Below are positions 16,301 to 54,836 of a DNA stretch of 64,000 nt, piece after piece (the first letter of the stretch is position 1; every line of letters begins with the position of its first letter). The stretch is from positions 238,739-302,738 of the forward strand of contig CAJTJB010000001.1 in the NCBI GenBank assembly GCA_910576955.1. Direction: 5' to 3'. The notes beneath the pieces were generated by a model. The model searched no databases, was not told where the DNA came from, and saw only the letters and a list, made by a program, of their open reading frames with translations. A program made the translations under genes and the position numbers. This stretch comes from an uncultured Alphaproteobacteria bacterium (lineage in GTDB: Bacteria; Pseudomonadota; Alphaproteobacteria; RF32; CAG-239).

Positions 16301-18599
16301 GTCACCGGTGGTTGATATGTATATGCAGTTAGGCATAAACCTGAAAGACAGTACGTTTAGTGCCGTTTGCGACACTATTTACCATAACGCCTCTTTCTCG
16401 GATGTTTTGAAATTTACTTTGGACGGCAAACTCTCCCAGCCGGAACTCAAACTTGATTTGAGCGATACGCTGTCGCGTATCAGCGAGAGCGAGAAACTTG
16501 CCAATGAGGCTATTATCCGGAGAGAACAAGAAAAGAACGAAAAATTAAAAAATAAAATTACTCTGGCAGAGAAAAACTTGGAAGATGCTTTAAAAGCCGT
16601 TTCGCAGGTATCTTTGAAAGCAGCGCAGTTTAAGCCGAAATCCGGTGACAGAGCCGTTATTAGAACATATGACGATATGATTCGGACGATTCAGGGCGCA
16701 CAGCAAAAGCTTGCCGGTCTGCAGGCAAAACTCGGAGCAACTTCGGATGAAAAAGCGCTTATGGATATTGATATGGAAATAAAATCCGAACTATCTAAAT
16801 TACAATTAGCACCTAAAACACTGGAAGACAACTATATTGTTGACGGCAAGTATGTTTATGACGAAATCTTTAACAAAATTGCCTGGCTGTATGATGCCGC
16901 TTCCAACAACGCCGGTTACTTTAATGAGCTTTCCGAGGCATATGTTAACCAAATTGCTTTAATGAAAAACGGCACAGAGCCGCTTTCTGAAGAAACTGAA
17001 AACTTATTGCTGAAAAGTATTCAAAAGGTTTCTGCGGATATGGAAAGAATAAGCAAGCTCCATACTAAAATGCGCGATGACTACCTCTTTATTGTGGATA
17101 CAACAAACATTGAGGCTATGCAAGACAATAACGAAATTGCAGAGCAAGCATTAAATACCATGCTTTCATATGCAAAATCCCTCAACAAAGATATTATCAG
17201 CAGCATTGAAGGCTTTATTTCCGCCCTTGGATTGGAAACCCGCGATTATAACGATTATATGGTTTCAATTCCGGAGAAAACCGAAGATATTGACTTAACA
17301 CGCCCGACAACGGCAACACCGGCAGACAAAGAGAAAACGGAGAAAAAAGCCGAGCCTGAAGCTAAAGTTGAAGAAAAAGCACAGGCATCAGCCTCTGCCC
17401 CGCAAACTGCAAGCGTTGCCGCAGAAAGCACGCCTGTTGTCGAAGCAGCGCCTGCTCCTGCGGAGATTGCCGTTTCAGAATCTGCTGATAATAAGTCGAC
17501 TGAAGATCCGGCTGATAAAAAAAAAATTGATGATAAATTAAGCCAGCTGCAAAACATTAAAAGCAATTTGTATGAGCTTATTAATAACTTCAGGGCAGAA
17601 CAACGGGCAAAAGAAGAGATAAAGACGGCAGCAAATGTCAATTCGGGAGGTTTGTCTTCGCTTTTATCAAACATCTTAACCCCCGAACCGAGCCCGGAAA
17701 CTCCTCAAGCCGTTGCCATTGAAGCCGATGACAGCGCAGAAAAGCCCGCTGAAATTGCCGCAGTTTCTCCGGCTCCGGTAAAACAAGATGAAGTTTCTGC
17801 CCTGCCTGTGGAAATTCAATTGGTGGAATCCGGTATTCCCACTGCCTCTTTAACTAAAGATGAAGAGGCTGCTATGACCGCAAGCCTTGACCTGATGCAA
17901 AAAACGCAAACCGCCTTAAATGACATTATTGCTCATGTTAAGGCCGAAGAAGAAAAAATGCAATCTCTTCGCATTGAAGAGCCGACACCGGTTGTTGTGG
18001 CGCAAAATACCGTTGCCCCTGTTGCCGAACCCGAAAAAATCAACATAAAAGACTATACCATTGCGCAACCTGAAACCAAATCAAACCTTAAACGCAATCC
18101 GGTTATTGCGCTTAATATCGGCAAAGAATTAACCTCTTCGGCGGCTAATGAATTTAACAATCTAAACAAAAGACCTGCCTCCAAATTTAAAAAAGCGCGT
18201 TACAATGATGTTATCAAAACCTTTGCCGGAAAGTCCAAAAGCAACCGTGCGATTATGGCGCAAAATATGTTGCCAAACCGAAAAGTTGAGTCCGCTGCAA
18301 CAGCATTACCGGTAATTACCGTGCATTCTGACAATCTGGAGCCGTCTTTTGACATCAGCTATTCCTCTGTTGAACCGGAAACAGCCAAAATTTCTTTTGC
18401 AGATAACAAATATGTTTTCGCAAGCAGTTTATCCCCTCTTGACAAAGCAAGCGGCGTTATCGGAAAAAGCGCGCTTGAAAACAAAGACATTCTGCCGCAA
18501 ACAACACGTTTGAACAAATATCTTTTTGCCGCCAATGACAATAATTTTGCCAAATTAAGCGGCGTTGCCGGTAAATATTCCTCGTTAGCTGTTAAATAA
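13395..18599 (+). CDS. AsmA-family (TamB/YhdP-like) inner-membrane-anchored protein. At 1734 aa it is unusually long, with a coiled-coil and an Ala/Pro/Glu/Lys low-complexity C-terminal half.
   Basis: N-terminal TM MLKKVIIGIICFILLAIAGAGIYIY is followed by AsmA-like beta-rich region. From about residue 1000 come heptad-like stretches (LANEAIIRREQEKNEKLKNKITLAEKNLEDALKAV) and low-complexity stretches (EKKAEPEAKVEEKAQASASAPQTASVAAESTPVVEAAPAPAE). GTG start. Confidence 0.7.
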   Translation: MLKKVIIGIICFILLAIAGAGIYIYTLDWNKHKALVAQRLTQITGLKSIIDGNLKVEIFPAPKIMASRVKFYPNNNSKTPLVVINQITANLELAPLIDNKFIVQSMILEQPSVNIEISEKGEFNWKDVGQNSHNKSGNVEMSFDNVRVNNATIAYENLKDKKEYNIPNISATVNAPSLQGPYKVDGKFIHNNSEIKFKGNISQNNKTSLNMAIENAVTGSKLAIEGSIGNNSRGTVSFDTRSLTDVVNVIFGENALNDNYKEPMFFSFQYNYTANIAKLENFTTKYGRNITGSGSVLLNLRNEKSVVAEFNMAQFNLDVLETIARDYIKFSQNGGKLADTAIFPYSVSFKLRSPSAFYKNAEAQNLNFGFNLNNGILDINSFGIVMPGETSFRTAGKVKLDEKLQYIFNQSIKSEDFRTFASVFGIDLTKQTAEENKKSVFKRLETNIQLKGNLDSFEIYAPKTLIDSTTLGFNIRYALDEGKKIVNADIAASKIIFDKYLQIVPEKLKNSPLKDKFIYQLNLIPWDNDMLTTAQISIEDAVYNKIPMQDIVLQFVKEQDNFNIRNLSFKNIASAQLEIKADIEKAFTEPQFKELSYNIKSANLPILTSSLGLDTHNMGLFKRKIFASQGALAGNFNDFSLSSVQKFGDTEFSFTGLVANPDKAKVAVNGDLELKTNNFTNFVRALNLDYTPNIPVTAFSANGKIKGNAEIFEFSDINALLGANKINGIIRFDNSADKPRLKAELDFDKFDATRWFNLDKNNTVKYVSETADFIVLPAFSADKIDYSPLNKVDFDIKAHAKSLIYGNNSYLATKADIKLKKGVLNVASFETQSDTSTISGNFVLDSNNTPKVKGKYYVAGIKTPDMGGKIYRLSSGKLSANGTFESDASSVKDFVDNLNSAGTFMLTDTAMKGWDLDIIKFDIEQRKTTSGFEKFVRNSLTSGESPFAKIGGKYSIKDGNVSADKALWQSPVVDMYMQLGINLKDSTFSAVCDTIYHNASFSDVLKFTLDGKLSQPELKLDLSDTLSRISESEKLANEAIIRREQEKNEKLKNKITLAEKNLEDALKAVSQVSLKAAQFKPKSGDRAVIRTYDDMIRTIQGAQQKLAGLQAKLGATSDEKALMDIDMEIKSELSKLQLAPKTLEDNYIVDGKYVYDEIFNKIAWLYDAASNNAGYFNELSEAYVNQIALMKNGTEPLSEETENLLLKSIQKVSADMERISKLHTKMRDDYLFIVDTTNIEAMQDNNEIAEQALNTMLSYAKSLNKDIISSIEGFISALGLETRDYNDYMVSIPEKTEDIDLTRPTTATPADKEKTEKKAEPEAKVEEKAQASASAPQTASVAAESTPVVEAAPAPAEIAVSESADNKSTEDPADKKKIDDKLSQLQNIKSNLYELINNFRAEQRAKEEIKTAANVNSGGLSSLLSNILTPEPSPETPQAVAIEADDSAEKPAEIAAVSPAPVKQDEVSALPVEIQLVESGIPTASLTKDEEAAMTASLDLMQKTQTALNDIIAHVKAEEEKMQSLRIEEPTPVVVAQNTVAPVAEPEKINIKDYTIAQPETKSNLKRNPVIALNIGKELTSSAANEFNNLNKRPASKFKKARYNDVIKTFAGKSKSNRAIMAQNMLPNRKVESAATALPVITVHSDNLEPSFDISYSSVEPETAKISFADNKYVFASSLSPLDKASGVIGKSALENKDILPQTTRLNKYLFAANDNNFAKLSGVAGKYSSLAVK

Positions 18600-34911: not shown

Positions 34912-34940
34912 GAGCGAGAGGGCTTTACAGCCCTCTTTTT
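34912..34940 (+). terminator. Intrinsic terminator after the OMP gene
   Basis: Stem GAGAGGGCT, loop TTAC, stem AGCCCTCT, then TTTTTG. It shares the GCGAGAGGG...CCCTCTTTTT core with the pgk terminator. Confidence 0.7.
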
Positions 34941-35103
34941 GTTGCTATCGGCAAAATTTCAGGGTATCAACTTTCTAGATTATATCAGAATTTCCGATAA
35001 ACGCGTTTTAATCAACACCCTTTTTCCTTATCATTGCAAAATATTTAATTCTCTGATATATAGCAAGGTATTACATGGTTATTATGAGATAAGGAGAAAA
35101 ACT

Positions 35104-36669
35104 ATGGGAAAAACTGCAATCATTATCGGCGCAGGGCCGGCAGGGCTTACGGCAGCTTATGAGCTGCTAAACCGGTCTGATATTACCCCGATTATTTTAG
35201 AAGAAAATGACTTTGTAGGCGGTATCAGCGCTACGCTTGACTATAAAAACAATAAAATTGATATGGGCGGGCACAGATTTTTTTCAAAGTCCGAACGGGT
35301 GATGAACTGGTGGCTGGATATTTTGCCGCTGCAGGGCAAGCCCTCAAAAGACGACATCATTTTGAAAAGGGAAGTTGAGTTATCCAAACTTAAAGGTGCG
35401 CCCGATCCCGAAAAAACAGACAGGGTTATGCTTAAAAGGAATCGGCTCTCACGCATTTATTACCTCAAAACATTTTTCAGCTATCCGGTCAGCCTGAATA
35501 TGGAAACAATTAAAGGACTCGGATTGTGGCGGATGTTTAAAATCGGCTGCTCGTATATGAAAGCGCTGGCGTTTCCGATTAAAAACGAAAAATCTTTGCA
35601 AGATTTTATGATTAACCGTTTCGGAAAAGAGCTTTATCTGACCTTTTTCAAAGACTATACGGAGAAGCTGTGGGGTATCGACTGCGATAAAATTTCCGCC
35701 GAATGGGGGGCGCAGAGAATTAAGGGGATTTCCATCTTAAAAGTCTTAAAGCAGATGGCTCAAAACCTCACCGGAAAGAAAGGCGGCGCGGTTGAAACCA
35801 GTTTTATTGAGAGCTTTTTCTACCCAAAGTATGGTCCGGGGCATATGTGGCAAAGCGTTGCCGAAGAAGTACGGAAAAAAGGCGGCAAAATTATTTTTGG
35901 GCAGAAAGTGACGGGGATTACCCGCAAAAACTTTAAGATTTCTGCCGTTGAAACCACGGATAAAAACGGCAAAACGACGGTTTATGAGGGGGATATATTC
36001 ATCTCGACAATGCCGGTTAAAGACTTAATCGAATCGATGAATAACGTTCCGCACGAGATTAAAAAAGTTGCGGGCGGATTAATGTATCGCGATTTCAGAG
36101 TGGTGGGCGTGCTTTTGGACAAGCTTAAGCTTAAAAACACCACCGCGATTAAAACGATTAACAACATTGTGCCGGATACTTGGATTTATGTGCAGGAGCG
36201 AGAAGTTAAGCTTGGGCGGATTCAGGTGTTTAACAACTGGAGTCCGTATTTGGTCAATGACTTCCAAAACACTGTTTGGATTGGTTTAGAATATTTTTGC
36301 AACGAGCAAGATAACATCTGGACTGATGACGACAAAACGTTTATCAAATTTGCCGTGGAAGAGGCTGACAAAATCGGTATTTTTGATAAAAAAGACGTGT
36401 TGGATGCGTATACCGCCCGTGTTAAAAAAGCATATCCGGCATATTTCGGCACATATGACCGTTTTGATGAGATTAAGCGGTTTGTTGATAAATTCAGCAA
36501 CCTTTATCTGGTTGGCAGAAACGGTATGCATCGCTATAACAATATGGATCACTCCACTTTGGCAGCGATGAAAGCGGTTGACTGCATTTTGGGCGAATGC
36601 AAAGACAAAAACGAGATTTGGTCGGTCAACACCGAATCGGATTATCACGAAGAAAAACAGGCAAACTGA
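35104..36669 (+). CDS. NAD(P)/FAD-dependent oxidoreductase (amine-oxidase / protoporphyrinogen-oxidase-like Rossmann family); substrate unknown
   Basis: [21 protein letters not shown] is a GxGxxG dinucleotide-binding motif directly after an AAGGAG ribosome-binding site. About 521 aa. The track start at 34939 is an upstream extension. Confidence 0.7.
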
Positions 36670-36671
36670 TT

Positions 36672-38126
36672 ATGCGCAAATTTATAGAGCAGCAGTTATT
36701 TGAATTTGATACTTCGGCATTGGTGCGGATTTTGAAGATTCTTTCAGCTGCTGCTTTGTTGGTGATATTATATGCGTTTGTGTTCTCGGGCTTTCAGGTT
36801 GTGGATGAATTTGAGCACCTGCACGCTGCTTGGCTGGTGAGCATCGGGAAAGTACCGTATGCGGATTTTTTTGAGCACCATAATCCGCTGTTGTGGTATT
36901 TGAGCGCACCGATTGTCAGTGCGTTTTATGATAATGTCAGCATCTTCTATGTGATGCGCGGCATAAGCTTTCTCTGCTCGGCACTGACTGTTTGGTACAT
37001 ATATCGAATCGCAATGTTTTTCGAGAGCCGCGCTGGTGCGTGGCTTGCTGTGGCGCTGACGCTTTGCAACATTATCACCGTTTATAATTTTTCGCAATTT
37101 CGACCAGATAATTATATGAACCTTTGCTTTATTATCGGGGTTTATTACTGGTTTTGTTATTTACGGTCGAATCGGACCTTGGATTTAATATATTCATTTT
37201 TGGCATTTACGTTTTCAGCGCTTTTTTTGCAAAAAATATCCCTTTTGCTCATCGGGGTTGAAGGAATTATGCTGTTTCTTATTTATAAAAAGAAAATGCC
37301 ACTCAAAGCTGCAACGCTTGCTGCATTGCCTGCAATCGGCGTGATGTTTTTGTTTATCGGCTTTATATATTCCCAAGGTGCGCTGTTAGAATATATCGAG
37401 CTCAATATCAACTTTAACCAAGCGATGGTGAGTTATTTTGAGCGTGGCGCGTTTTGGTATCGGAATTATTATTTCAGCCTTTACGGGGGAGCACTTATTG
37501 CCGCGATATATTTGTTTAATAAAGAAAATATGTATTATAAAATATTGGCGGCAATTTATGTGATGGAATTTATAATGCGCGGATTTTATTTTGCACCGCA
37601 CCCAAACTATTACACCTTGTTGACAATGCTTGCGGCATTGGTGCTTTCTACCATTACCAAGCGGATTATGCCCGGGCATAAGATAATTTGCATTGTCGGC
37701 GTTTTCGGTCTGTTTTTGTATCTGGGAAGTATTTTTAACCAAACGGACAGCACTTCCGCTCGGCATAACAGTTATAACCATTACAAACTTGCGGAATATG
37801 TCCATGAAAACTCCGATAAAACCGATTTGCTGATGAATGGATATGACAAGAACTTCAATATTTACCGGCGCGATGTCAGCTATTATTGGTTCGGGCTTGA
37901 TATGCTGCTGCCAGTAATGGAAAAGGAATATGGGACAAACAATAAAATTGATGTTAACGCTTTGGTTTTGCAAAACCGTCCGAAATTTATCTATACGAAA
38001 GATTATGTAGATTTACAAGCATTGCGAACATACGGCGAGCGCAAATATTCGCAGAAATTCATTCCGGAAATTATCAACACGCTTTACCGACCGACACCCT
38101 TTGAAAATCTGGTTGTTTTAAAATAA
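36672..38126 (+). CDS. GT-C fold membrane glycosyltransferase (ArnT/PMT, GT39/83-like)
   Basis: About 11 TM helices. The first loop has ...DEFEHLHAAWLVSIGKVPYADFFEHHNPLLWYL, resembling the DE...KPPL motif of the ArnT/PMT family. The ATG at 36672 is 2 nt after the oxidoreductase stop (TGAttATG coupling). Confidence 0.6.
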   Translation: MRKFIEQQLFEFDTSALVRILKILSAAALLVILYAFVFSGFQVVDEFEHLHAAWLVSIGKVPYADFFEHHNPLLWYLSAPIVSAFYDNVSIFYVMRGISFLCSALTVWYIYRIAMFFESRAGAWLAVALTLCNIITVYNFSQFRPDNYMNLCFIIGVYYWFCYLRSNRTLDLIYSFLAFTFSALFLQKISLLLIGVEGIMLFLIYKKKMPLKAATLAALPAIGVMFLFIGFIYSQGALLEYIELNINFNQAMVSYFERGAFWYRNYYFSLYGGALIAAIYLFNKENMYYKILAAIYVMEFIMRGFYFAPHPNYYTLLTMLAALVLSTITKRIMPGHKIICIVGVFGLFLYLGSIFNQTDSTSARHNSYNHYKLAEYVHENSDKTDLLMNGYDKNFNIYRRDVSYYWFGLDMLLPVMEKEYGTNNKIDVNALVLQNRPKFIYTKDYVDLQALRTYGERKYSQKFIPEIINTLYRPTPFENLVVLK

Positions 38127-38184: not shown

Positions 38185-38844
38185 TTGATGCGGAAACTGT
38201 TTAGAATTATTTGTTTTTGCTTGTTGGGATTGGCAAAACTCGCTGTTGCCGACGAGGTTGCCGTGAGCAGTACGGACGCCCGCGACTGGACAAACAGCAA
38301 AGGAAAGGAACTGTTGCAAACGCTGGCAGAACCTGATTTGATTGTCAAATATTCAAAGCTTGACAAGATGATGACGGAATATGTGAATCTCGACTATGTT
38401 GCAAAATTTGTTATCGGGAAATACGGCAAAATTATGACACCCGAGCAAAAAGAACGTTATCGAGGGCTGTTTCAGCGCTATGTTTTGAGCTTGTATAAAC
38501 AATTTAATCTCAATATTGAAGAGGGAAGCATTAAATTTTCAATAGACAGCGTAACCGAACACCCGCGATTTACAACTGTCCAATGTACGGTTGACCCGGG
38601 GGATGTTTTGAAAAATATCAAAATTGAGAAAATTCCGGTCAAATTTAAGCTGATACGCGGCGTCAGCGATACTATCCAAGCCGTGGATCTGGAAATCTCC
38701 GAGGTCAGCATGGTGATTGAATACCGCAAGCGCTTTTATCAGATGATTAAAGAAGAGGAAGAGGATATCAACTGGTTTTTAGACCGTTTTGATGACAAAG
38801 TCCGAGCCAATGAGAAAGCCTTTTTGCAAAAAGCCGAGATTTAA
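38185..38844 (+). CDS. MlaC/Ttg2D-like periplasmic phospholipid-binding protein
   Basis: Signal peptide, then ...LDKMMTEYVNLDYVAKFVIGKYGKIMTPEQKERYRGLFQRYVLSLY, a MlaC family-like pattern. 219 aa. Confidence 0.55.
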   Translation: MMRKLFRIICFCLLGLAKLAVADEVAVSSTDARDWTNSKGKELLQTLAEPDLIVKYSKLDKMMTEYVNLDYVAKFVIGKYGKIMTPEQKERYRGLFQRYVLSLYKQFNLNIEEGSIKFSIDSVTEHPRFTTVQCTVDPGDVLKNIKIEKIPVKFKLIRGVSDTIQAVDLEISEVSMVIEYRKRFYQMIKEEEEDINWFLDRFDDKVRANEKAFLQKAEI

Positions 38845-45625: not shown

Positions 45626-46360
45626 TTATTCGCGGGTGCTCTTAATGTTATTCCCCATATAAGACAAATCATACCGCGTGATGGTTATGCCGAACGGATT
45701 TATTAAACCCAGCCTTTTATCTTCGTATTTTTCAGCATTAAAGTTCATACGCAATGTGGCTATCCAACGGCTGATCAGCGGTTCAATATATTCCGGACCG
45801 GTATCTATGGTTTCAAACCGAACCTGCCAGAAATCAAATGACACGGGATATATCATATTTATCTTTACCTTACGCCGGATATTCTTTTTTTGCAACGACT
45901 CAAAATATGGCAGTTCAGTTTGTTGAAAATCACGATAAACCTCTGTTGAAGACGCCAGATTCACAAACCCGTTTTCATTGTAACGGCTCATCATTTCATC
46001 ATAGTCTTCACCGATTGTATAACGCTGCTCAACATATTTTGCCATCAGGCTCTCGGTTACCAAATCGCCTGCATATGCCCGAGTTTCCGCTGGCTGCATT
46101 ATTGATATTTGATAACGGTCATAATCTATCTGCAACGGTATCACCCTAACTTTTCGCTGCGGAATCAGGAGTGTCAACGTGCCGGCAAGAACCATATTTA
46201 AGCACAAACTGATTACCGAAATTACCACGAAAAAGCGGGAGGTCCATAAAAAGCGCCTTTCGGGAAATGCGCGAACGTCTACTTTTTCTGGATAATAGCC
46301 GAGCTCATCTTTTTGGGCTTTTTCCTTATATTTGAACAGAGTATAAAATAAATCAAACAT
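45626..46360 (-). CDS. VirB8-like (type IV secretion VirB8 / TrbF / DotI-like) bitopic inner-membrane protein; orphan
   Basis: Short cytoplasmic N-terminus, one TM (FFVVISVISLCLNMVLAGTLTLL), then a VirB8-like periplasmic domain: LIPQRKVRVIPLQIDYDRYQISIMQP ... LMAKYVEQRYTIGEDYDEMMSRYNENGFVNLAS ... ITITRYDL. Compare A. tumefaciens VirB8 LTPLKTVEPYTLLVDRQTG ... FLVQYIIAREGYDFDTLQSDYRKVAL ... VSRYRRD. Confidence 0.5.
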   Translation of the reverse strand: MFDLFYTLFKYKEKAQKDELGYYPEKVDVRAFPERRFLWTSRFFVVISVISLCLNMVLAGTLTLLIPQRKVRVIPLQIDYDRYQISIMQPAETRAYAGDLVTESLMAKYVEQRYTIGEDYDEMMSRYNENGFVNLASSTEVYRDFQQTELPYFESLQKKNIRRKVKINMIYPVSFDFWQVRFETIDTGPEYIEPLISRWIATLRMNFNAEKYEDKRLGLINPFGITITRYDLSYMGNNIKSTRE

Positions 46361-46493
46361 CTTCTCACCGTTCTTGAAATTCCATATTATCTCTATTTTA
46401 CATGAAAGTTGTATAAAATCAAATAAAATACTATCAATTAAAAAATTTTTAGTGTAAATGTTTATTTGAACAATAATGTTTGAGGGAAAACTA

Positions 46494-48347
46494 ATGAAGA
46501 AACTTGTTTGTTTTATGGGAGCTGTTGCCGGTTTTGTGGGCGCTTGCTCTACTACTGCGCCGGAAGTTACCGTTGAGGCGCCAGCTATGTCCGCCTATTA
46601 TTCCGACTGGGACAGAGCTGTCAGAGCCGATGTTGATATGCAGAATATGTATATCGGCACGCCGTCGAAAATCACAAAACCTGTTGATATGTATATGGCA
46701 ATGGCTTTAGCTTTGAAATATAATTACACAAGAAGGCTGGCCAGCTATAAAGAAAGTCTGGGCGCAGATAATATTTCTTTGGCAGCGCTGCCGACCATGG
46801 CTGAAAATCTGGGGTATGAAAACAGCACGAATTCCGATGCAGTTCCGGCTGATTTGAAAGTTTCTTGGAATCTTTTAGACTTATCCGCACTTCAGTATCA
46901 GAACACGGCGGCTTCTCCCGAAACAGCTGCTCAAGAGCAAACACGCAAAGTTATCAATAACATCATGCTGGAAACGCGTTCTTTGTATTGGAAAGCTTTA
47001 GCTGCGCAGCGGCTTATTCCGGTTATTGATGACATGAACGAGTATCTGGTTCGCGTTGTGGATGAGATTAACGCTCGTTCAAATGAGATGGCTAAAGCAG
47101 GCAAAAATCCCTCAACGACTCTGCTTGTAAAAAAGAGAACTTATCTTGAAAACATCAAAAAATTAGCTGATTTGAGAAAGAAATTTGACACAGCTCAAAC
47201 CGAATTTGCCGGTTTGCTGGGGTTATATCCTTCCGCAGAAATCAAATTAGCCGGGGCGGAATACGGCAATTTCCCAATTCCGTCGCTGCGAGCTAAAATT
47301 CAGCAATTAGAATGGCTTGCATTAACGAATCGCCCTGAACTGCGCGCATTTGATTTGGGAACATCCAAAGACGAGCTGCAGCTTGTGATTAAAGATTTTG
47401 ACAGCGTTAACAACAGTGATTATCGCCAAGACCCCAACTATTATAACAGAAAATGGGCAAAAGATTCGAATGCGCTGTCTATGACTGTTTTTGAAGAAGC
47501 TACTGATAATAATGACTTGACTTATAATTCATTAGCACGGCAGAGAATGGCGCACATTGTGCTTAATCAGGTTTATCTGGCATGGGCTATGTATCAGTCT
47601 GCCGTGGAAGATTATTACCTGAATATGGGCGTGGCGACAACGTCTGAAGATATTGCCGAAGATATTACCAACAAAGAAGGCGCAAACAAAGCTATCAGCC
47701 ATTTAGAATCGGCTCGCGCCATTATTGACGAGGCAAACGCTTTCTTATCTTATATAGACGTTCAGGAAGCAATCGGCAGATTATATGCCAGTATCGGGTT
47801 AGATGCTGTTCCGGCATCTATGCTTAAAGATACTCCGTCTGTTATCGCCGTACAAATCAGAGAATCGCTTGACAATTGGAGCAACGGTATCTTCTCGGCT
47901 GATGTTAAAGGCGCTTTGGCGACATCTTCCGGACAGAAACCTCCGGCAGATATTTCATCTGCGGCATTAGTTCCAAATGTTGTTGTCGGGACCGGATCTG
48001 ATGTTAACATTAAAATTCCGGATGAAGTTTTCCAAAAAGTAAATTGGGAAGGAAATTATACAACTGTTGCCGGCTCGTTAGATGATGCGGGGTTGCCTGC
48101 TTGGTTGAAATATGATGACAAAACTCACACCTTTACCGGGCATCCGACGATGGAAGACGAAGGAGATTATCGCATTAAAGTGTATGCTTTAGATAATTCC
48201 GGCAACAGCGCGGTGCTTGGCTTTACGATTACCGTAAATAATGTTTATATTCAAACGATGGAATATAAAGGGCTGACCGGTTACAGACGTGCTAAAGTAT
48301 ATCATAAATGCACACCGGGAACGCCTTGTGCAAAAAATGATATATAA
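46494..48347 (+). CDS. Lipoprotein combining an OMF/TolC-like (NodT-type) helical region with a C-terminal cadherin-like / putative Ig domain
   Basis: Lipobox AVAGFVGAC. The OMF-like region has LDLSALQYQNTAA...LYWKALAAQRLIPV...WLALTNRPELRAFDLG. The C-terminus has VNIKIPDEVFQKVNWEGNYTTVAGSLDDAGLPAWLKYDDKTHTFTGHPTMEDEGDYRIKVYALDNSGNSAVLGFTITVNN (dystroglycan-type cadherin-like motif). The track start at 46476 is an upstream extension. Confidence 0.55.
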   Translation: MKKLVCFMGAVAGFVGACSTTAPEVTVEAPAMSAYYSDWDRAVRADVDMQNMYIGTPSKITKPVDMYMAMALALKYNYTRRLASYKESLGADNISLAALPTMAENLGYENSTNSDAVPADLKVSWNLLDLSALQYQNTAASPETAAQEQTRKVINNIMLETRSLYWKALAAQRLIPVIDDMNEYLVRVVDEINARSNEMAKAGKNPSTTLLVKKRTYLENIKKLADLRKKFDTAQTEFAGLLGLYPSAEIKLAGAEYGNFPIPSLRAKIQQLEWLALTNRPELRAFDLGTSKDELQLVIKDFDSVNNSDYRQDPNYYNRKWAKDSNALSMTVFEEATDNNDLTYNSLARQRMAHIVLNQVYLAWAMYQSAVEDYYLNMGVATTSEDIAEDITNKEGANKAISHLESARAIIDEANAFLSYIDVQEAIGRLYASIGLDAVPASMLKDTPSVIAVQIRESLDNWSNGIFSADVKGALATSSGQKPPADISSAALVPNVVVGTGSDVNIKIPDEVFQKVNWEGNYTTVAGSLDDAGLPAWLKYDDKTHTFTGHPTMEDEGDYRIKVYALDNSGNSAVLGFTITVNNVYIQTMEYKGLTGYRRAKVYHKCTPGTPCAKNDI

Positions 48348-48358
48348 AGGACGGTCAG

Positions 48359-49909
48359 GTGTTTGACTATATAGAAAAGCATCCTATCGTTTTTACTATC
48401 TTAATATGCTTGCTGTTATTTTTAACAGCAGGCATATTTTATAATGCGGTGCCGATAAGCGATTTTCAGGCATCCTATCTGATTTTTGCGGGGATTTTGG
48501 CTTCATGTACGGATGGTTACAATAAGCGAATCGGAATTATTTTGGCAACGCTTTTCCTTTTTCTGTTGTTTCTAACGGCAGATGCCCGCAGCAGCATTTA
48601 TCTTATCGGCGAATACGGAATTTTATCATTATTTACGTTTCTCAACAAATCCCGTTCGAATATTTTTATATTTGCAATAACAGCGGCGGCGTTTTTATTG
48701 CATTTGCATTATATACAATATACGCCTGTAAATATCCGACAGCATGATATAAATGGCATTATGCTGTATATGAAACAGATTACGCAAAACGGTCTGAATA
48801 TTTTACAATTTGACCCGTGGCATATGTATTATCTGTTTCACCAACCGCTGCATTTTATCTTTGCCGGCTATTTATTATCTTTGGAATTATATTTGTGGAA
48901 CTCCAACGCCTTGGCTTTAGAGGGAGTGCAATATTTGTCTTTGTTATATGTGACGCTCACCACCATTACGGCAGCCGCTATTTTCAAAGAACTTCATATT
49001 GTGGGGAAACCATTTTATGCCTTGTTGCTATTGTTTGCATTTAACCCGACGCTTACGCTGTTTTCCGGATATCTTTCCGATGATGCTCCGGCGGTTTTTT
49101 GGAGCGTTTGCGTTGTCTATTTTATTATCAGATGGTACAAGGCGGAGCGGGCAAAAGATATTGTTTTTGCGGCGGTTTGTTTTGGTTTCGGGGTGCTGAC
49201 AAAATTATCCGTTTTAATGATGGTGCCGGCTGTCTGTTTTATTTTTGCGTACAAGTTATTTTTCACGCTGTCCGACAGGCAAAAAACTTTGCAGCAAATA
49301 AGCTGTTTTATTATTGTTGCCGTACCGCTTGCGCTGCTATGGATTATACGCAACCATATTTTATTTGATATGCAATTTTTCAATATTCCCGACACATCTC
49401 CTGCGGGACAGAATTTTAAATATCTGACTTTAACGGAGCGAATCGGTGACTTTTCAATGTTTTCTTATCCGTTTCTTGATGCGCCCAAAGTTAATGACGC
49501 CAATATCTTCCTTGCACTGATTAAGACAGAACTGTTCGGCGAATGGGATTTCAGCATTGCGAATCATTTTGTTTATTTGCCGGCACTGATACTTTATGTT
49601 CTGAATATTTCAATTAAGTTTTTGGCATTTGCCGGATGCCTTTCAGGGGTAAAAAATTCAACCATTGAGCATCCGTTTGAGGGAATGTTTGCTATTCTTT
49701 ATTTAACAATTTGGCTTTACGCTTTAAAGTATGCGCTTGATTATCCTTATATTTGTTCAACCGATTTCAGATTGTTTGCACAACTTATGTTGCCTGAAGC
49801 TATTTTACTTTTTGCGGCTTGTCCAAAGATAATGAAAAACGCCGCATTTCCGGCACTTTCCATATCATATGCGGCGTTAAGCTGTTTCATTTATCTGTTC
49901 GGAATCTAA
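48359..49909 (+). CDS. Polytopic membrane protein, second GT-C-like (ArnT/PMT-like) glycosyltransferase candidate
   Basis: 516 aa with 12 or more TM helices. An early loop (HDINGIMLYMKQI...FDPWHMYYLFHQPLHFIF) resembles the D-x...xPPL loop of GT-C enzymes. A GYLSDDAP loop is also present. GTG start. Confidence 0.45.
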   Translation: MFDYIEKHPIVFTILICLLLFLTAGIFYNAVPISDFQASYLIFAGILASCTDGYNKRIGIILATLFLFLLFLTADARSSIYLIGEYGILSLFTFLNKSRSNIFIFAITAAAFLLHLHYIQYTPVNIRQHDINGIMLYMKQITQNGLNILQFDPWHMYYLFHQPLHFIFAGYLLSLELYLWNSNALALEGVQYLSLLYVTLTTITAAAIFKELHIVGKPFYALLLLFAFNPTLTLFSGYLSDDAPAVFWSVCVVYFIIRWYKAERAKDIVFAAVCFGFGVLTKLSVLMMVPAVCFIFAYKLFFTLSDRQKTLQQISCFIIVAVPLALLWIIRNHILFDMQFFNIPDTSPAGQNFKYLTLTERIGDFSMFSYPFLDAPKVNDANIFLALIKTELFGEWDFSIANHFVYLPALILYVLNISIKFLAFAGCLSGVKNSTIEHPFEGMFAILYLTIWLYALKYALDYPYICSTDFRLFAQLMLPEAILLFAACPKIMKNAAFPALSISYAALSCFIYLFGI

Positions 49910-50673
49910 TCGCGGCGCAACCCTTTGATTTCCGCCTCGATAGCATCTGACAAATCGTCATTGCCGCTTTCGGTTTCCTTTTTTAATTCCGTATCTGCTG
50001 TTTCTTCCTGCATTTTGGTAAAGAGCAACAGGTTTTCCGGTTCTTCGCCTTCTTCAATTTCGCTCACATATGAGGTTGATGTTTCGGAGATATAGGCGGG
50101 CGTTTCCCGAATATCCTTTTCAATATCCCTATCTTCATTTATGAACTCTTTAATGCGGATAACCTGCTCTTTTTCCGGTGCAGCTTGTTCACCGGCTGTT
50201 TCCTCTTTAGCAACGTTTTTACCGGAAATAACATCCTTTGCAGGCAAATTGTCGCGTTGTTTTAGTTCTTCTTCCGTCAGTAATTTGGCGGCTTCCACTT
50301 CAGCATCTATGCATTCAAGCAGCCACACGTCATAAATGGGGTGCTCAATCGCATTTATTCCGGGAGTTGAAGACAACATCCATCCGCGGAAAATATTATA
50401 TTCATCCTCGCCGAAACTTTTATCTGCCACATCAACAAACGCAAAATTTTCGGGCGTTTCTTCCGCCGGACGTTTTTTGCACGCACGCAACACCAGCGAA
50501 AAATCGCCAAAACTTATTTTGGAATTAACCGGCACGGTGATTTTATTGACGCGCCCCGTCACCTTATCCATTGCCTGCATTAACGCTGCATTTGTCGGAA
50601 TTTCTGCCGCCAGTGCGGGTGCACACATTAAACAGCAAAGCGCTGCCGTATATTTCAGCTTATTTTTCATCAT
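49906..50673 (-). CDS. Secreted DUF2155-like protein with a long acidic C-terminal tail
   Basis: Signal peptide MMKNKLKYTAALCCLMCAPALA; core VTGRVNKITVPVNSKISFGDFSLVLRACKKRPAEETPENFAFVDV; then an E/D-rich tail. Last gene of the mce-mce operon. Confidence 0.5.
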   Translation of the reverse strand: MMKNKLKYTAALCCLMCAPALAAEIPTNAALMQAMDKVTGRVNKITVPVNSKISFGDFSLVLRACKKRPAEETPENFAFVDVADKSFGEDEYNIFRGWMLSSTPGINAIEHPIYDVWLLECIDAEVEAAKLLTEEELKQRDNLPAKDVISGKNVAKEETAGEQAAPEKEQVIRIKEFINEDRDIEKDIRETPAYISETSTSYVSEIEEGEEPENLLLFTKMQEETADTELKKETESGNDDLSDAIEAEIKGLRRD

Positions 50674-51187
50674 TGTTTGTCACCATAAAGATAATTTCAC
50701 CCACCATATCTTCTAAAGATTTGGCATCTTTCGTATTTGTCGCCGTTGAACCAGCAGCCATTTTTTCTTTTGCTTTTCCCGGTTCAATCTTAACATATTT
50801 ATCGCCCATCAGCCCGTCGCCGGCAATCATTATCTGACTGTCTACGGGTAACGAAATCTGCGGCATTATGCTTAATTTAACATCTACCATATAATCCAGC
50901 GGGTTTACGCTTTGAGATACGACAGTTCCAACTTTGATGCCGTTTATTCGCACGTCTGCGCCCGTATTTAACCCGCCCACTTTTAAAAAGCGGCTGTTTA
51001 TCTCATAACCTTTTACCACCTGCAAATCCGACACGCGGTATGCAAACATCATAAACAGGGCTGCGACGGCTAACACGACCAGCCCCATAATTGTTTCCAC
51101 CGGCTTTTTATTCATTGTCTTCTCCTTTATCTTCTGCCTTGTTTGACCGGGCTTGTTTTCCCTTGCCCATTGCCACAATGCGTTCAA
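50660..51187 (-). CDS. MlaD-like single-MCE-domain protein, paralog 2
   Basis: Probable start MNKKPVETIMGLVVLAVAALFMMF near 51115 (N-terminal TM), with MCE-domain pattern ...GYEINSRFLKVGGLNTGADVRINGIKVGTVVSQSVN... Confidence 0.75.
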   Translation of the reverse strand: MNALWQWARENKPGQTRQKIKEKTMNKKPVETIMGLVVLAVAALFMMFAYRVSDLQVVKGYEINSRFLKVGGLNTGADVRINGIKVGTVVSQSVNPLDYMVDVKLSIMPQISLPVDSQIMIAGDGLMGDKYVKIEPGKAKEKMAAGSTATNTKDAKSLEDMVGEIIFMVTNNDEK

Positions 51188-51623
51188 GCAATTCTTCTAA
51201 TACGAGGGCATCCTGCGTATAGCTGATGCTGCCTTTATCCGGAATATAATCTTCTGACCCGCCGACTTCTATTTCAACATATTTGCCGCCTATCAGCCCG
51301 AAGCTGACAATCGAAGCGCTGCTGTCATCCGGTATGCGGTAACGGCTGCTGATGTTTAAGGTCAGGCGAGAATTAAAATTTTCATCAAGTTCGGCTTTTG
51401 AGACACGCCCGATATTTACGCCCGAAAGACGGACGGCATCTCCAACATTCAAACCGTCCGTGCGGCCAAAACTTGCGTATATGTCATATGTATCGCCGAT
51501 GCCTCGATTTTTGATTGAGGCATTATGCGAAATGGTTACGAACACAACAATCAGGACAACGGCAAGAGCCATTATTCCGGTGCGAATCGACTTTTCTTCC
51601 TCAATAGAATATTTTTCCTGCAA
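51108..51623 (-). CDS. MlaD-like single-MCE-domain protein, paralog 1
   Basis: N-terminal TM GIMALAVVLIVVFVTI, with MCE-domain pattern YDIYASFGRTDGLNVGDAVRLSGVNIGRVSKAELD. Confidence 0.75.
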   Translation of the reverse strand: MQEKYSIEEEKSIRTGIMALAVVLIVVFVTISHNASIKNRGIGDTYDIYASFGRTDGLNVGDAVRLSGVNIGRVSKAELDENFNSRLTLNISSRYRIPDDSSASIVSFGLIGGKYVEIEVGGSEDYIPDKGSISYTQDALVLEELLERIVAMGKGKQARSNKAEDKGEDNE

Positions 51624-51777
51624 AATCTTGCTCCGTTATATTTTATTATAAACACTTTGTTTATAGAATATAAATAATTTTTTGTCACCTATGTTTTGAT
51701 TTATTCCGCCAAATTGTGAAAATTTTAAACATTTTCCGTTATATATGCTTTATAGCTTTTTGTTTATAGGGTAGATT

Positions 51778-52497
51778 ATGATTAATATTCAACATATTTC
51801 CAAAGAATATGGCGGCAAAATAGTTTTAAATAACCTTAATCTCACTTTACGCCGCGGCGAGGTTGCGGCATTGGTGGGGGAGAACGGTGCCGGGAAATCA
51901 ACGCTTATGCGCATTATGTGCGGATATGTGGCTCCGTCTGAAGGCAATGTATCTATATTCGGCAATGACATCCGTGAGCAAAGAATAAAAGCCTTGCAGC
52001 ATATCGGATATGTTCCTGAAATCTCAAATTTATACGGTGATATGATTGTTTATGATTTTCTAAAATGGATTGCCGAGCTGCACGCCGTTAAAAATGCCGA
52101 CGCCGCCATTCTTGATGCTGCAGAAAAAATACATATTACGGAAACCTTTTCACAAAAGATTGAAACCCTTTCCAAAGGATATAAAAAACGGGTGGAGATT
52201 GCCTCGGCAATTTTGCATAATCCGGATATTCTTATTCTAGACGAGCCGACAGACGGACTCGACCCTAACCAAAAAAGAGATTTGCGTAAGTTTATGAAAC
52301 AATATGCCCACAAGAATATTGTTTTGCTCTCAACGCATGTTTTGGAAGACACAAAAGACGCGGACAGAATTATCATGCTGGCCGATGGGAAAATCATAAA
52401 AGATACCAGCATCGCCGAATTTAAAAAAATATCTAAAAGCAGAGATCTCGGCGAAGCTTTTCACTTGTTAACCGAACAGGCGAAGGAGGAAGAATGA
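51778..52497 (+). CDS. ABC transporter ATP-binding protein
   Basis: Walker A GENGAGKST, signature LSKGYKKR, Walker B ILILDEPT. Confidence 0.9.
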   Translation: MINIQHISKEYGGKIVLNNLNLTLRRGEVAALVGENGAGKSTLMRIMCGYVAPSEGNVSIFGNDIREQRIKALQHIGYVPEISNLYGDMIVYDFLKWIAELHAVKNADAAILDAAEKIHITETFSQKIETLSKGYKKRVEIASAILHNPDILILDEPTDGLDPNQKRDLRKFMKQYAHKNIVLLSTHVLEDTKDADRIIMLADGKIIKDTSIAEFKKISKSRDLGEAFHLLTEQAKEEE

Positions 52498-54836
52498 AAC
52501 AATTTCTTGTGCAGTTTAAAAAAGATTTTGCCGCTTATTTCAGCGGCGTTAACGCGTATCTGATTATCTTTGCCTATTATCTGCTGTCTTTTTTTTCCGC
52601 ACTTTATTTGGGCGATTATTTTGTGCGCGAAACGGATGTTATGAATGCCTATTTTGTGATGCAGCCGCTGGTTTTGGTTTTGATTATTCCCGCTGTTACC
52701 ATGCGCACTTGGGCAGATGAAATCAAGAGCGGCACAATTGAACTCTTATTAACCCAGCCTATCAGCCATACGGTTTTGGCATTGTCAAAATTCTGCGCTG
52801 CTTTTGCTTTCTTTTTGGTGCTGATTTTATGCTCTGTTCCTTTCTTGTTTATTTCCGGCATCTTGTCTTTTTTGGATTGGGGGATGGTTATTTCCGCATA
52901 TCTCGGCTTGATTTTTTCGGGGGCATTGTTTACTGCCGCAGGCTGTTTGATTTCCTCTTGCTGCCGCAGCGTTATTACCAGTTTTGTATGTACCGTTTTT
53001 GTATTATTTTTTATATTGCAGCTTGATTTTTCGGCATCCGGCACATGTCTGCCGGTTAACGCGTTCGGCTTTGGCTATCATTATCGCGCTTTTTTAAGCG
53101 GCGCTTTGTTATGGGGTAATTCAGCATATTTCATTCTAGCAACACTTTTGCTGCTTTGGCTAAATGTGGTTATGCTAACGCAGCGTTCCGACACTTCGGC
53201 AAACGGAAAGCGTTTGTTTCGTTATTTTTCCGTTTTATTATTTGTGATATTCTTTTCCGGCAATTTAAGCGCTTTTTTGTTTTCTGACACTATTGCAGAC
53301 TTTACAGACAATAAGATGTATACTTTAACGGAGAAAAACCGGAATTTTTTGCATTCTTTAGACAAACGAATCGACATCACCCTATATGAGGCAAAAAGCA
53401 AACGTGAAGACGGAAGCTCGCGTTATGCTTCATATGCCGCCTATATCGAACGCTTTTTACAGCAAATCCAAAAATATTCATTCGGGGCTGTCCGTTATTC
53501 TGTTATCCGTGTTGAGCCGTTCAGCGCTTTAGAACGTCGGCTTATCAGGGACAATATCCCCTATGAAGAAGATAATTTCGGCAATAAAAGCTTTATGGCG
53601 ATGGATGTTTCCGACAATAGCGGCAACATGTTGCAAATTAACGCCTTGGAAAGCTTGAGGCAAAATTTGTTAGAAACGGACATTATGCGCCTTATCCGGA
53701 TGTTTGGCAAAGAAAAGAAATCTGTCGCACTGTATGTTTCTTCCGATGAGCTAAACGAAATGCAAGGTTTTTATAATTTTTTAAACGAATTTTATAATGT
53801 GGATTTTATCCATTCGGATACGCAATTTATACCCAATACCTACGATGCCGTTATATTAATTAACCCCACAGAATTATCTTATGGGTTTCTGCCGGCACTT
53901 GACCAGTATATCTTAAATGGCGGAAACGTGGTTATGTTCCATGAGCCCTCCCTCTTGGGACATGGCGACAACTCTGACTTATCAGATTTTCTCAACACTT
54001 ACGGCATTAAACCGCTTGCAAATTTCGATATTGCCGACGGCAGTTCCCCAATACGTCCGGCAATGCCGTATAAAGCCGAAGACCGAGATGATATTCGTGT
54101 GGTGATGACGAACGAAGCCGGCGAGGTTCAAACCCGTCCCAGCCGTTTATTCGCCTCAATGCCTATATTGGTTTCAGACAATAAAAACATCGGTGTTTTG
54201 ACCAAAGGGAAATTTGAAACACACTATCGGGAGTTTGCTGAAAATAGAGCCGGCTTTTTATCCGAATCTTCACAAAGCGGGCAGTTCTTTTTCTTTTATG
54301 ACAGCGACATCTTAAAAGACTACCTGTATGCGGCAGATGAATCTAAAGGGGCGGGATTTTACCAAATTGTTTCATTTGCCGACAATCAATTATTTTATTT
54401 GCAGCTTATTGACAAGGCGACCCATAACGGGATTGAAACCGAACTTAATTACCCCCATTATTCGATGAATTTAGCCGGTATCAGCACTTTTATCCTCAAA
54501 GCCCAACAGAAAAACTATCAAGAAATGCTTGACACACTGCAAACTAAAATCAACTCCCTTAAAAAAGCTTTAGATTTTGCGGATACATCTTCGGTGAGAA
54601 ATCTCGGAACCCGACATAAGCTGACATTAGACTTGGAAGAGGCAGAGGATGCGCTTAACGAAACCAAAAAGCTTATTATTGCCGATTATCATTCGGCTAT
54701 TGCCGGTTTGACCATTGGTATCCTTTTAGTCATTCCTTGCTTTTTACTTGGTATCTTATGCCTCGCTTTATACATTTTCCGTAAACACAAAAGGTGCAAA
54801 ATCAGGAGGTTAATATCTGATGAAATTACACATTAA
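52494..54836 (+). CDS. Fused ABC-2 type permease and GldG-like (ABC_transp_aux) auxiliary protein
   Basis: The N-terminal 240 aa carry 6 TM helices (ABC-2 permease-like). An extra TM is followed by a roughly 450-aa soluble domain with a C-terminal TM anchor (IAGLTIGILLVIPCFLLGILCLALYIF), the topology of GldG. A 4-bp overlap with the ATPase gene. Confidence 0.6.
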   Translation: MKQFLVQFKKDFAAYFSGVNAYLIIFAYYLLSFFSALYLGDYFVRETDVMNAYFVMQPLVLVLIIPAVTMRTWADEIKSGTIELLLTQPISHTVLALSKFCAAFAFFLVLILCSVPFLFISGILSFLDWGMVISAYLGLIFSGALFTAAGCLISSCCRSVITSFVCTVFVLFFILQLDFSASGTCLPVNAFGFGYHYRAFLSGALLWGNSAYFILATLLLLWLNVVMLTQRSDTSANGKRLFRYFSVLLFVIFFSGNLSAFLFSDTIADFTDNKMYTLTEKNRNFLHSLDKRIDITLYEAKSKREDGSSRYASYAAYIERFLQQIQKYSFGAVRYSVIRVEPFSALERRLIRDNIPYEEDNFGNKSFMAMDVSDNSGNMLQINALESLRQNLLETDIMRLIRMFGKEKKSVALYVSSDELNEMQGFYNFLNEFYNVDFIHSDTQFIPNTYDAVILINPTELSYGFLPALDQYILNGGNVVMFHEPSLLGHGDNSDLSDFLNTYGIKPLANFDIADGSSPIRPAMPYKAEDRDDIRVVMTNEAGEVQTRPSRLFASMPILVSDNKNIGVLTKGKFETHYREFAENRAGFLSESSQSGQFFFFYDSDILKDYLYAADESKGAGFYQIVSFADNQLFYLQLIDKATHNGIETELNYPHYSMNLAGISTFILKAQQKNYQEMLDTLQTKINSLKKALDFADTSSVRNLGTRHKLTLDLEEAEDALNETKKLIIADYHSAIAGLTIGILLVIPCFLLGILCLALYIFRKHKRCKIRRLISDEITH

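Follow-up and report, generated by a model that had tools for sequence, protein, structure and literature searches.

Little is understood of how phospholipids are moved between the membranes of alphaproteobacteria, a class to which relatives of the mitochondrial ancestor belong. In this class, genes for type-I MCE proteins are preceded by a gene for NDUFA12 and not by genes for an ATP-binding cassette (ABC) transporter (Isom et al., 2017, PMC5561183), and the separation of the short alphaproteobacterial MlaD from any ABC transporter has been on record since 2017; a fusion of MCE and NDUFA12 has also been noted in Trichoplax (PMC5561183). An operon of the form NDUFA12-mlaD-DUF2155 has been described in Thioclava electrotropha, in which mlaD and the DUF2155 gene are both non-essential (PMC9226611), and Caulobacter contains one MpcD-like protein and one separate protein resembling the MlaD of E. 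coli (PMC12436622). In the present work, we have analysed a stretch of 64,000 nucleotides (nt) from an uncultured Alphaproteobacteria bacterium (assembly GCA_910576955.1, contig CAJTJB010000001.1, positions 238,739 to 302,738), hereafter called the window, which contains on its minus strand a cassette of three genes, viz. two tandem genes for single-MCE proteins of the MlaD family (mlaD1 and mlaD2) and a gene for a secreted DUF2155 protein. In the literature searched, we found no description of tandem short MlaD paralogs, nor of the fixed upstream position of MlaD1, of DUF2155 as a constant downstream partner, or of the lineage-specific acidic tail that the DUF2155 protein carries here.

The cassette belongs to a kind of Mla/MCE system that is already known from alphaproteobacteria, in which the MCE genes stand apart from ABC genes. 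The locus as a whole is probably best explained as the local copy of an ancient alphaproteobacterial Mla-type cassette, for which the divergently transcribed ABC module beside it is no more than a syntenic neighbor. Information regarding the distribution of the cassette, the relationships of its proteins and the genes that surround it is discussed below.

The mlaD1-mlaD2-DUF2155 cassette and its MlaD paralogs

One genome per GTDB species was scanned with an alignment of diverse DUF2155 sequences, and in the 80 loci obtained the open reading frames (ORFs) were called and then searched with the proteins of the window. The counts given here refer to 27 loci of the gut lineage for which 2.6 kb or more of upstream sequence is available (among L004-L035) and to 45 distant alphaproteobacterial loci (among L036-L087), which include Rhodospirillales, Magnetovibrio, Defluviicoccus, SAR116 and others. 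The closest relatives are metagenome-assembled genomes from human gut and rumen that are labelled Alphaproteobacteria bacterium, Acetobacter sp. and Proteobacteria bacterium CAG:495. A preliminary description of this DNA had proposed to check whether the order mce-mce-DUF2155 is conserved in related alphaproteobacteria. Genes of the mlaD1 type, the mlaD2 type and DUF2155 follow one another in this order in all 27 gut/rumen-lineage loci and in 21 of the 45 distant loci; the mlaD2 type alone is present in a further 19 distant loci, and no MlaD is encoded within 3 kb in the other 5. A methyltransferase gene is sometimes inserted ahead of the DUF2155 gene in the distant loci. One example from a cultured species is Caenispirillum salinarum, where the called genes and their Pfam labels read NDUFA12-MlaD(184)-MlaD(151)-DUF2155(141), followed by aat, accC, accB and aroQ.

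A gene for NDUFA12 (PF05071) is located directly upstream of the cassette in 41 of the 45 distant loci, whereas it occupies this position in none of the 27 gut/rumen-lineage loci, where the missing neighbor may reflect the loss of complex I in anaerobe-associated genomes. The frequency of this neighbor, together with the fusion in Trichoplax, might be taken to indicate that the cassette belongs with respiratory complex I and not with envelope lipid transport. We consider such a link very improbable, since the gut lineage has kept the full cassette with no NDUFA12 gene adjoining it, so that its function is independent of that neighbor, and both MlaD proteins retain the lipid-pore features of solved MlaD structures.

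The assignment of the three genes in the window is based on their ORFs and Pfam domains, which agree with the preliminary description in giving two single-MCE proteins and a secreted DUF2155 protein. The MCE proteins had been put at about 150-170 amino acids (aa), each with an N-terminal transmembrane segment, and the products indeed measure 171 and 151 aa with one hydrophobic helix each (Table 1). Independent gene calls on public contigs also return products of 171, 151 and 255 aa. The window also forms part of a metagenomic contig of 212 kb (ENA ERZ17808227, contig ERR3199605_50). A longer version of mlaD2, viz. a 175 aa ORF with a TTG start (50660-51187), was rejected as over-extended; the ATG at 51115, which follows a GGAG, gives 151 aa. 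By reading of the sequence, mlaD1 and mlaD2 overlap by 8 bp (ATGAATAA), at the upper end of the 4-8 bp previously given, and mlaD2 overlaps the DUF2155 gene by 14 bp (11 bp if counted from the second ATG) and not by the 4 bp that had been stated. An overlap of 4 bp is instead found in convergent orientation, between the stop of the DUF2155 gene and that of a PMT-like gene (48359-49909). The tight operon organization that had been proposed is confirmed.

Both MCE proteins match MlaD (PF02470) well above the Pfam gathering cut-off of 25.1 bits (mlaD1, E 4e-19, 69.0 bits; ORF 50660-51187, E 2e-17, 63.8 bits). On the NCBIfam MlaD equivalog model TIGR04430 they score 128.0 bits (mlaD1) and 123.9 bits (mlaD2), in both cases slightly below the cut-off of 135 bits, and for this reason we class them by sequence as MlaD-family proteins and not as certified equivalogs. 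In a search of PDB sequences, mlaD1 aligns with the MlaD of the P. aeruginosa structure 7CH8 over aa 13-152 (E 1e-23). The pore-loop segments GLIGGKY and GLMGDKY correspond, by alignment only, to GLLGEQY of E. coli MlaD, and the same alignment indicates that the hydrophobic pore-loop pair GL(I/M)G.KY and the C-terminal amphipathic helix have been kept in both paralogs.

The two MlaD proteins of the window share 29% identity, and a neighbor-joining tree of 126 MlaD ORFs taken from the fetched loci separates them. In this tree, 50 of the 51 upstream copies group in one clade from which downstream and singleton copies are absent, and all 52 downstream and all 22 singleton copies, mlaD2 among them, lie on the opposite side. 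A pure clade of at least 45 of these 51 copies was recovered in 86% of 300 bootstrap replicates, and one of at least 50 in 57%. The upstream copies share on average 41% identity with one another and the downstream and singleton copies 47.5%, as compared to a mean of 30% between the two groups. On this evidence mlaD1 is placed in an upstream MlaD paralog clade, and the duplication is judged to be ancient because the upstream copies form a clade of their own that is only about 30% identical to the downstream copies. The position of the downstream and singleton copies in turn identifies mlaD2 as the ortholog of the single MlaD that alphaproteobacteria usually encode ahead of DUF2155. In contrast, mlaD1 is a separate partner of ancient duplicate origin, retained in some lineages and lost in others.

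The preliminary description had proposed that tandem MCE proteins may form hetero-hexameric rings, an idea with which the ancient origin and separate conservation of the two paralogs are compatible. The tight operon linkage of the two genes and their translational coupling in the gut lineage make it plausible that MlaD1 and MlaD2 would be combined in one mixed ring. They could alternatively remain unmixed and form separate homo-hexamers with distinct jobs, e.g., one ring serving MlaFE/MlaC and the other serving DUF2155 or another partner, which we regard as unlikely. The solved proteobacterial MlaD rings (PDB entries) are all homo-hexameric, and at about 30% identity the subunit interfaces could have diverged. 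The presence of the mlaD2 type alone beside DUF2155 in 19 of the 45 distant loci further indicates that MlaD1 is not strictly needed, and the fact that MlaD2 suffices there weighs against a mixed ring. However, wherever MlaD1 is present it is encoded immediately upstream of MlaD2 in the same operon, with coupling through the 8-bp overlap in the gut lineage, and an arrangement of this kind is typical of the subunits of one complex. Mycobacterial Mce1A-F (8FED) sets a precedent for a hetero-hexameric MCE ring.

Table 1. Coordinates in the window of the cassette, its proposed functional segments and the genes discussed with it.
Feature	Position (nt)	Residues (aa)	Strand	Characteristics
mlaD1	51108-51623	171	-	single-MCE; TTG start 6 nt past a GGAG
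mlaD1 transmembrane helix	51531-51587	13-31	-	19-residue window, Kyte-Doolittle 2.56
mlaD1 MCE domain	51261-51491	45-121	-	
mlaD2	50660-51115	151	-	single-MCE; ATG at 51115 preceded by GGAG
mlaD2 transmembrane helix	51044-51100	6-24	-	19-residue window, Kyte-Doolittle 2.36
mlaD2 MCE domain	50777-51013	about 35-113	-	
DUF2155 gene	49906-50673	255	-	
DUF2155 protein, signal peptide	50608-50673	1-22	-	Sec-type; cleavage between A-L-A and A after aa 22, by inspection
DUF2155 protein, beta-sandwich	50311-50586	30-121	-	invariant C65, C121
DUF2155 protein, acidic tail	49909-50298	126-255	-	largely low-confidence; conserved helix at end, aa 239-254
mlaD1-facing promoter-like block	51660-51688		-	GTGACA 51688-51683, 17 nt, TATAAA 51665-51660
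ABC ATPase gene, GldA-like	51778-52497		+	divergent from cassette
GldF-like ABC-2 permease fused to GldG-like ABC_transp_aux domain	52494-54836	780	+	
mlaC homolog	38185-38844	218-219	+	PF05494, E 7e-19; 11 kb from cassette, outside operon
Two genes listed before mlaC (FAD amine-oxidase-family, PMT_2)	34939-36669, 36597-38126			form a trio with mlaC

The DUF2155 protein

The third protein of the cassette matches DUF2155 (PF09923) over aa 30-121 (E 2e-28, 99 bits; Pfam gathering cut-off 27), and the motifs of the family (viz. DK, EETPE, GW and H..YD.W) are all found in it along with the two cysteines. The invariant columns of a 96-sequence alignment include D36, K37, T39, R41, C65, E71-E72-x-P74-E75, R96-G97-W98, S102, P104, H111, D115, W117 and C121. 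The invariant pair C65/C121 suggests a disulfide bond formed in the periplasm. For a sandwich of about 90 aa, the number of invariant polar residues is unusually large (S102, H111, D115, the EETPE segment E71-E75, C65 and C121), and this set hints at a specific ligand or catalytic site and not a mere scaffold. No solved structural relative of the fold was found, and the searched literature that mentions DUF2155 gives no function for it.

A search with the domain yields 3,632 representative clusters (50% identity). Typical members of the family are 125-160 aa long, and a median of 16 residues follow the domain. Tails in the gut lineage, by comparison, measure 45-313 aa (median 143) and have a D/E content of 26%, and in close relatives they end in the conserved helix motif DDLSxAIDAEIKxL. 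The AlphaFold2 confidence (predicted local distance difference test) for the protein of the window exceeds 90 over the DUF2155 domain, drops to 53-71 over aa 161-240 and returns to about 90 for the last helix. The tail is thus a lineage-specific extension of variable length that is largely disordered. It had previously been called highly acidic; with 34 D/E against 17 K/R in aa 136-255 (net charge -17) it is acidic, but not extremely so.

A distant homolog of another lineage (P0260, 264 aa, domain at aa 149-253) was considered as a possible MlaD-DUF2155 fusion and rejected, its parts being a lipoprotein signal, an acidic linker and DUF2155. The acidic low-complexity region of this protein precedes the domain, behind an LSGC lipoprotein-type signal, and acidic disordered extensions have therefore been added to DUF2155 more than once, and at either end.

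MlaC and the divergent ABC module

A homolog of mlaC, which the preliminary description did not mention, is present in the same window and points to an ordinary Mla-type shuttle pathway. Its direct match to solved E. coli MlaC is weak (E 8e-5), and it is conserved at 53-100% identity across the gut lineage, where the longest contigs that carry it agree in several cases in length with those of the DUF2155 homologs. MlaC would be a partner acting in trans of the MlaD ring. The gene is the last of a trio conserved in the lineage, consisting of a flavin adenine dinucleotide (FAD) amine-oxidase-family gene, a PMT_2 (ArnT-like) glycosyltransferase gene and mlaC, followed by leuS-lptE-holA. The pairing of an amine-oxidase-type enzyme with an MlaC-like protein is reminiscent of HpnE and HpnM, which are encoded in hopanoid clusters. 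This context (amine oxidase, PMT_2, MlaC, LeuRS, LptE, HolA) is syntenic everywhere in the relatives, and no mlaFE genes were found in their mlaC neighborhoods. For the segment 28663-31224 of the window, no entry was found on record. Pfam annotation likewise revealed no MlaE or MlaF in the window or its flanks (about 6 kb on the upstream and 10 kb on the downstream side), and an E. coli MlaE probe found no match among the ORFs of the window or of the 87 fetched loci. This probe, which is 100% identical to chain G of PDB 6XBD, still detects mycobacterial YrbE (E 6e-15). In the window and its flanks, the cassette is hence not accompanied by an MlaE-type permease, as had been noticed in the preliminary description.

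Beside this lack and the shared intergenic region, the same description considered a pairing of the cassette with the GldG-type ABC system encoded on the other side. In such a scheme, the MCE proteins would dock on GldA and GldF-GldG in a non-Mla ABC/MCE hybrid, and the two operons would be co-regulated from the 154-bp spacer. The divergent arrangement is indeed conserved in the gut lineage, where the GldA/GldFG/DUF4340 module adjoins the cassette in 25 of 27 loci and both the length and the sequence blocks of the spacer are maintained, and no MlaFE was found in the window and its flanks, nor any MlaE in the 87 loci. The fold of MlaE is distantly related to that of ABC-2-type permeases, and docking on GldF-GldG is therefore not structurally absurd. 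However, the cassette is much older and more widespread than this adjacency, which is found in none of the 45 distant loci, and two loci of the gut lineage itself have an intact cassette and no ABC module, with PlsY-DprA-TopA (L018) or a methyltransferase and a histidine kinase (L025) upstream in its place. In addition, the whole region forms one synteny block of 30 kb in the lineage (mlaC, LeuRS, LptE, HolA, ClpXP, VirB8, an He_PIG outer-membrane protein, the PMT-like gene, the cassette and the ABC module), so that conserved adjacency within it carries little functional weight. The ABC module is also a self-contained trio, which already includes a DUF4340 partner and a large GldG-like domain in the periplasm, and an mlaC gene is available in the window. 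In view of these observations the proposed pairing is quite unlikely, and the reading of the module as a syntenic neighbor is retained.

The GldF-GldG fusion gene of the module is followed by a gene for a DUF4340-like protein of 314 aa. The order ABC ATPase, ABC-2 permease and GldG-like ABC_transp_aux protein is shared with the GldA/GldF/GldG gliding-motility transporter of Flavobacterium; the module differs from it in the fusion of GldF and GldG, in the DUF4340-like gene that comes after, and in scores that lie far below the equivalog cut-offs (GldA, 205 vs 402.6 bits; GldF, 101 vs 288.5 bits; GldG, 31 vs 389.9 bits). The cut-offs of the generic Pfam families ABC_tran, ABC_transp_aux and DUF7088 are reached, and that of ABC2_membrane_2 is narrowly missed (25.6 vs 27.2 bits). 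Judged by these scores, the module belongs to a broad uncharacterized ABC-2 plus auxiliary family and does not consist of true Gld orthologs. The closest relatives share the fusion of GldF and GldG, which are encoded by separate genes (about 243 and about 635 aa) in more distant members of the lineage (loci compared: L012, L017, L020, L021, L023, L024, L026, L028, L029, L031, L032, L034 and L035).

The intergenic region of 154 bp between mlaD1 and the divergent ABC ATPase gene (start 51778) was correctly described at the outset, and its length is kept at 140-160 bp across the gut lineage. An alignment of 25 orthologous gut-lineage intergenic regions contains two conserved blocks. The block facing mlaD1 is conserved as TTGATGACAAAA...TAT..ATA (Table 1), and the second, of the TTTAAATTTTAACAAT-type, could be a promoter facing the ABC operon. 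Judging from this conservation, the spacer seems to contain two promoters arranged back to back and not a single operator that serves both sides. A generic promoter scan reported 7 sites against 5.0 expected, which is not above chance, and chose a different site (51674-51645); together, the generic promoter and terminator scans did not exceed the shuffled expectation. No Rfam match at E 0.1 or better was obtained for an RNA element in the spacer or the operon.

A number of other genes in and near the window were observed in the course of this work. The PMT-like gene that converges on the cassette is on the plus strand and encodes a membrane glycosyltransferase of 516 aa; it comes after a gene (46476-48347, plus strand) for a 623 aa protein with a weak TolC/OEP-like region and an He_PIG Ig-like domain, and this pair is kept beside the cassette in close relatives. 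A lone VirB8-family gene (45626-46360, minus strand; PF04335, E 3e-19) adjoins clpP-clpX at a position that is conserved across the lineage, and no other type IV secretion genes were noticed near it. A gene for GcrA (63465-63953), by which the organism can be recognized as an alphaproteobacterium, lies just inside the downstream end of the window, and homologs of LptB, LptC/LptA and KdsD lie just past it. An ORF of 1734 aa (13395-18599, plus strand) has no family assignment on record, and a BigA-like autotransporter of 1849 aa is encoded just before the start of the window (L002 4370-9919).

Proposed model and comparison with known systems

The ancestral operon is proposed to have been (NDUFA12)-mlaD1-mlaD2-DUF2155, of which the gut/rumen lineage would hold its own version. 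MlaD1 and MlaD2 are most likely inner-membrane-anchored single-MCE subunits of a periplasmic MCE ring involved in phospholipid trafficking of the Mla type. The ring is probably of mixed MlaD1/MlaD2 composition, and it would exchange lipid with the periplasmic carrier MlaC that is encoded 11 kb away, with power supplied by an ABC module of the MlaFE type whose genes would lie elsewhere in the genome. The DUF2155 protein is secreted and translationally coupled to MlaD2, and it most likely therefore serves the ring in the periplasm, as an accessory subunit or partner; its domain is viewed as a probably disulfide-bonded beta-sandwich. What the lineage would have gained in this protein is the variable acidic tail, largely disordered and ending in a conserved helix. 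The divergent GldA/GldF-GldG/DUF4340 module would be a lineage-specific neighbor with its own promoter-like block and not the motor of the cassette.

A stronger proposal can be put forward only tentatively, and we consider it improbable in its entirety. It holds that MlaD1 and MlaD2 form an obligate hetero-oligomeric ring (e.g., 3+3), which would be the first in a proteobacterium, that DUF2155 is its subunit or cap, that the three proteins make up an alphaproteobacteria-wide module separate from its ABC motor, and that the tail with its terminal helix serves as a flexible tether to another component of the envelope. Within the broader model of an ancient Mla-type cassette, the additional MlaD paralog, which is conserved separately and lies directly upstream in about half of the relatives sampled, is an argument for a mixed MCE ring. 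DUF2155, which is constant as the partner on the downstream side, becomes a good candidate for a missing Mla component, and the seeming connection with a GldG-type ABC system is explained by synteny. Should both the mixed ring and the partnership with DUF2155 be real, they would extend the Mla paradigm; otherwise, the cassette would be an ordinary conserved operon.

Among MCE systems with several subunits, the Mce1A-F hetero-hexamer of mycobacteria with YrbE1A/B (PDB 8FED) shares with the cassette the presence of tandem paralogous MCE genes in one operon. The cassette differs in having two genes and not six, in the short length of its products (151-171 aa), which lack the long helical needle, and in having no adjacent YrbE/MlaE; the sequence similarity is weak (E 3e-8 and worse). 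The chimeric Mla-Pqi system Mpc (MpcEFDA) of Brucella abortus (PMC12436622) is, like the present one, an alphaproteobacterial MCE system. MpcD is a protein of 331 aa with a long helical C-terminus that is encoded with MpcE/MpcF and a PqiC-like lipoprotein in an organism without MlaC, whereas the MlaD proteins of the window belong to the class resembling E. coli MlaD, are short, have no ABC genes beside them and co-occur with MlaC.

The MlaFEDCB-MlaA system of E. coli and P. aeruginosa (6XBD, 7CH8) has in common with the cassette a single MCE domain, an N-terminal transmembrane anchor, a pore loop and a C-terminal helix in MlaD, and a homolog of its MlaC is also encoded in this window. In contrast to that system, there are two mlaD paralogs here instead of one, mlaF, mlaE and mlaB are neither in the operon nor nearby, and mlaC is not part of the operon, where the DUF2155 gene follows mlaD instead. 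A further correspondence is with the alphaproteobacterial NDUFA12-mlaD-DUF2155 operon (PMC5561183, PMC9226611), which has the same mlaD-DUF2155 pair and likewise no ABC genes that belong to it. The cassette of the window departs from this arrangement in the lack of NDUFA12 and in the extra MlaD1 upstream, and from DUF2155 proteins elsewhere in an acidic tail of 130 aa where the median after the domain is 16 aa.

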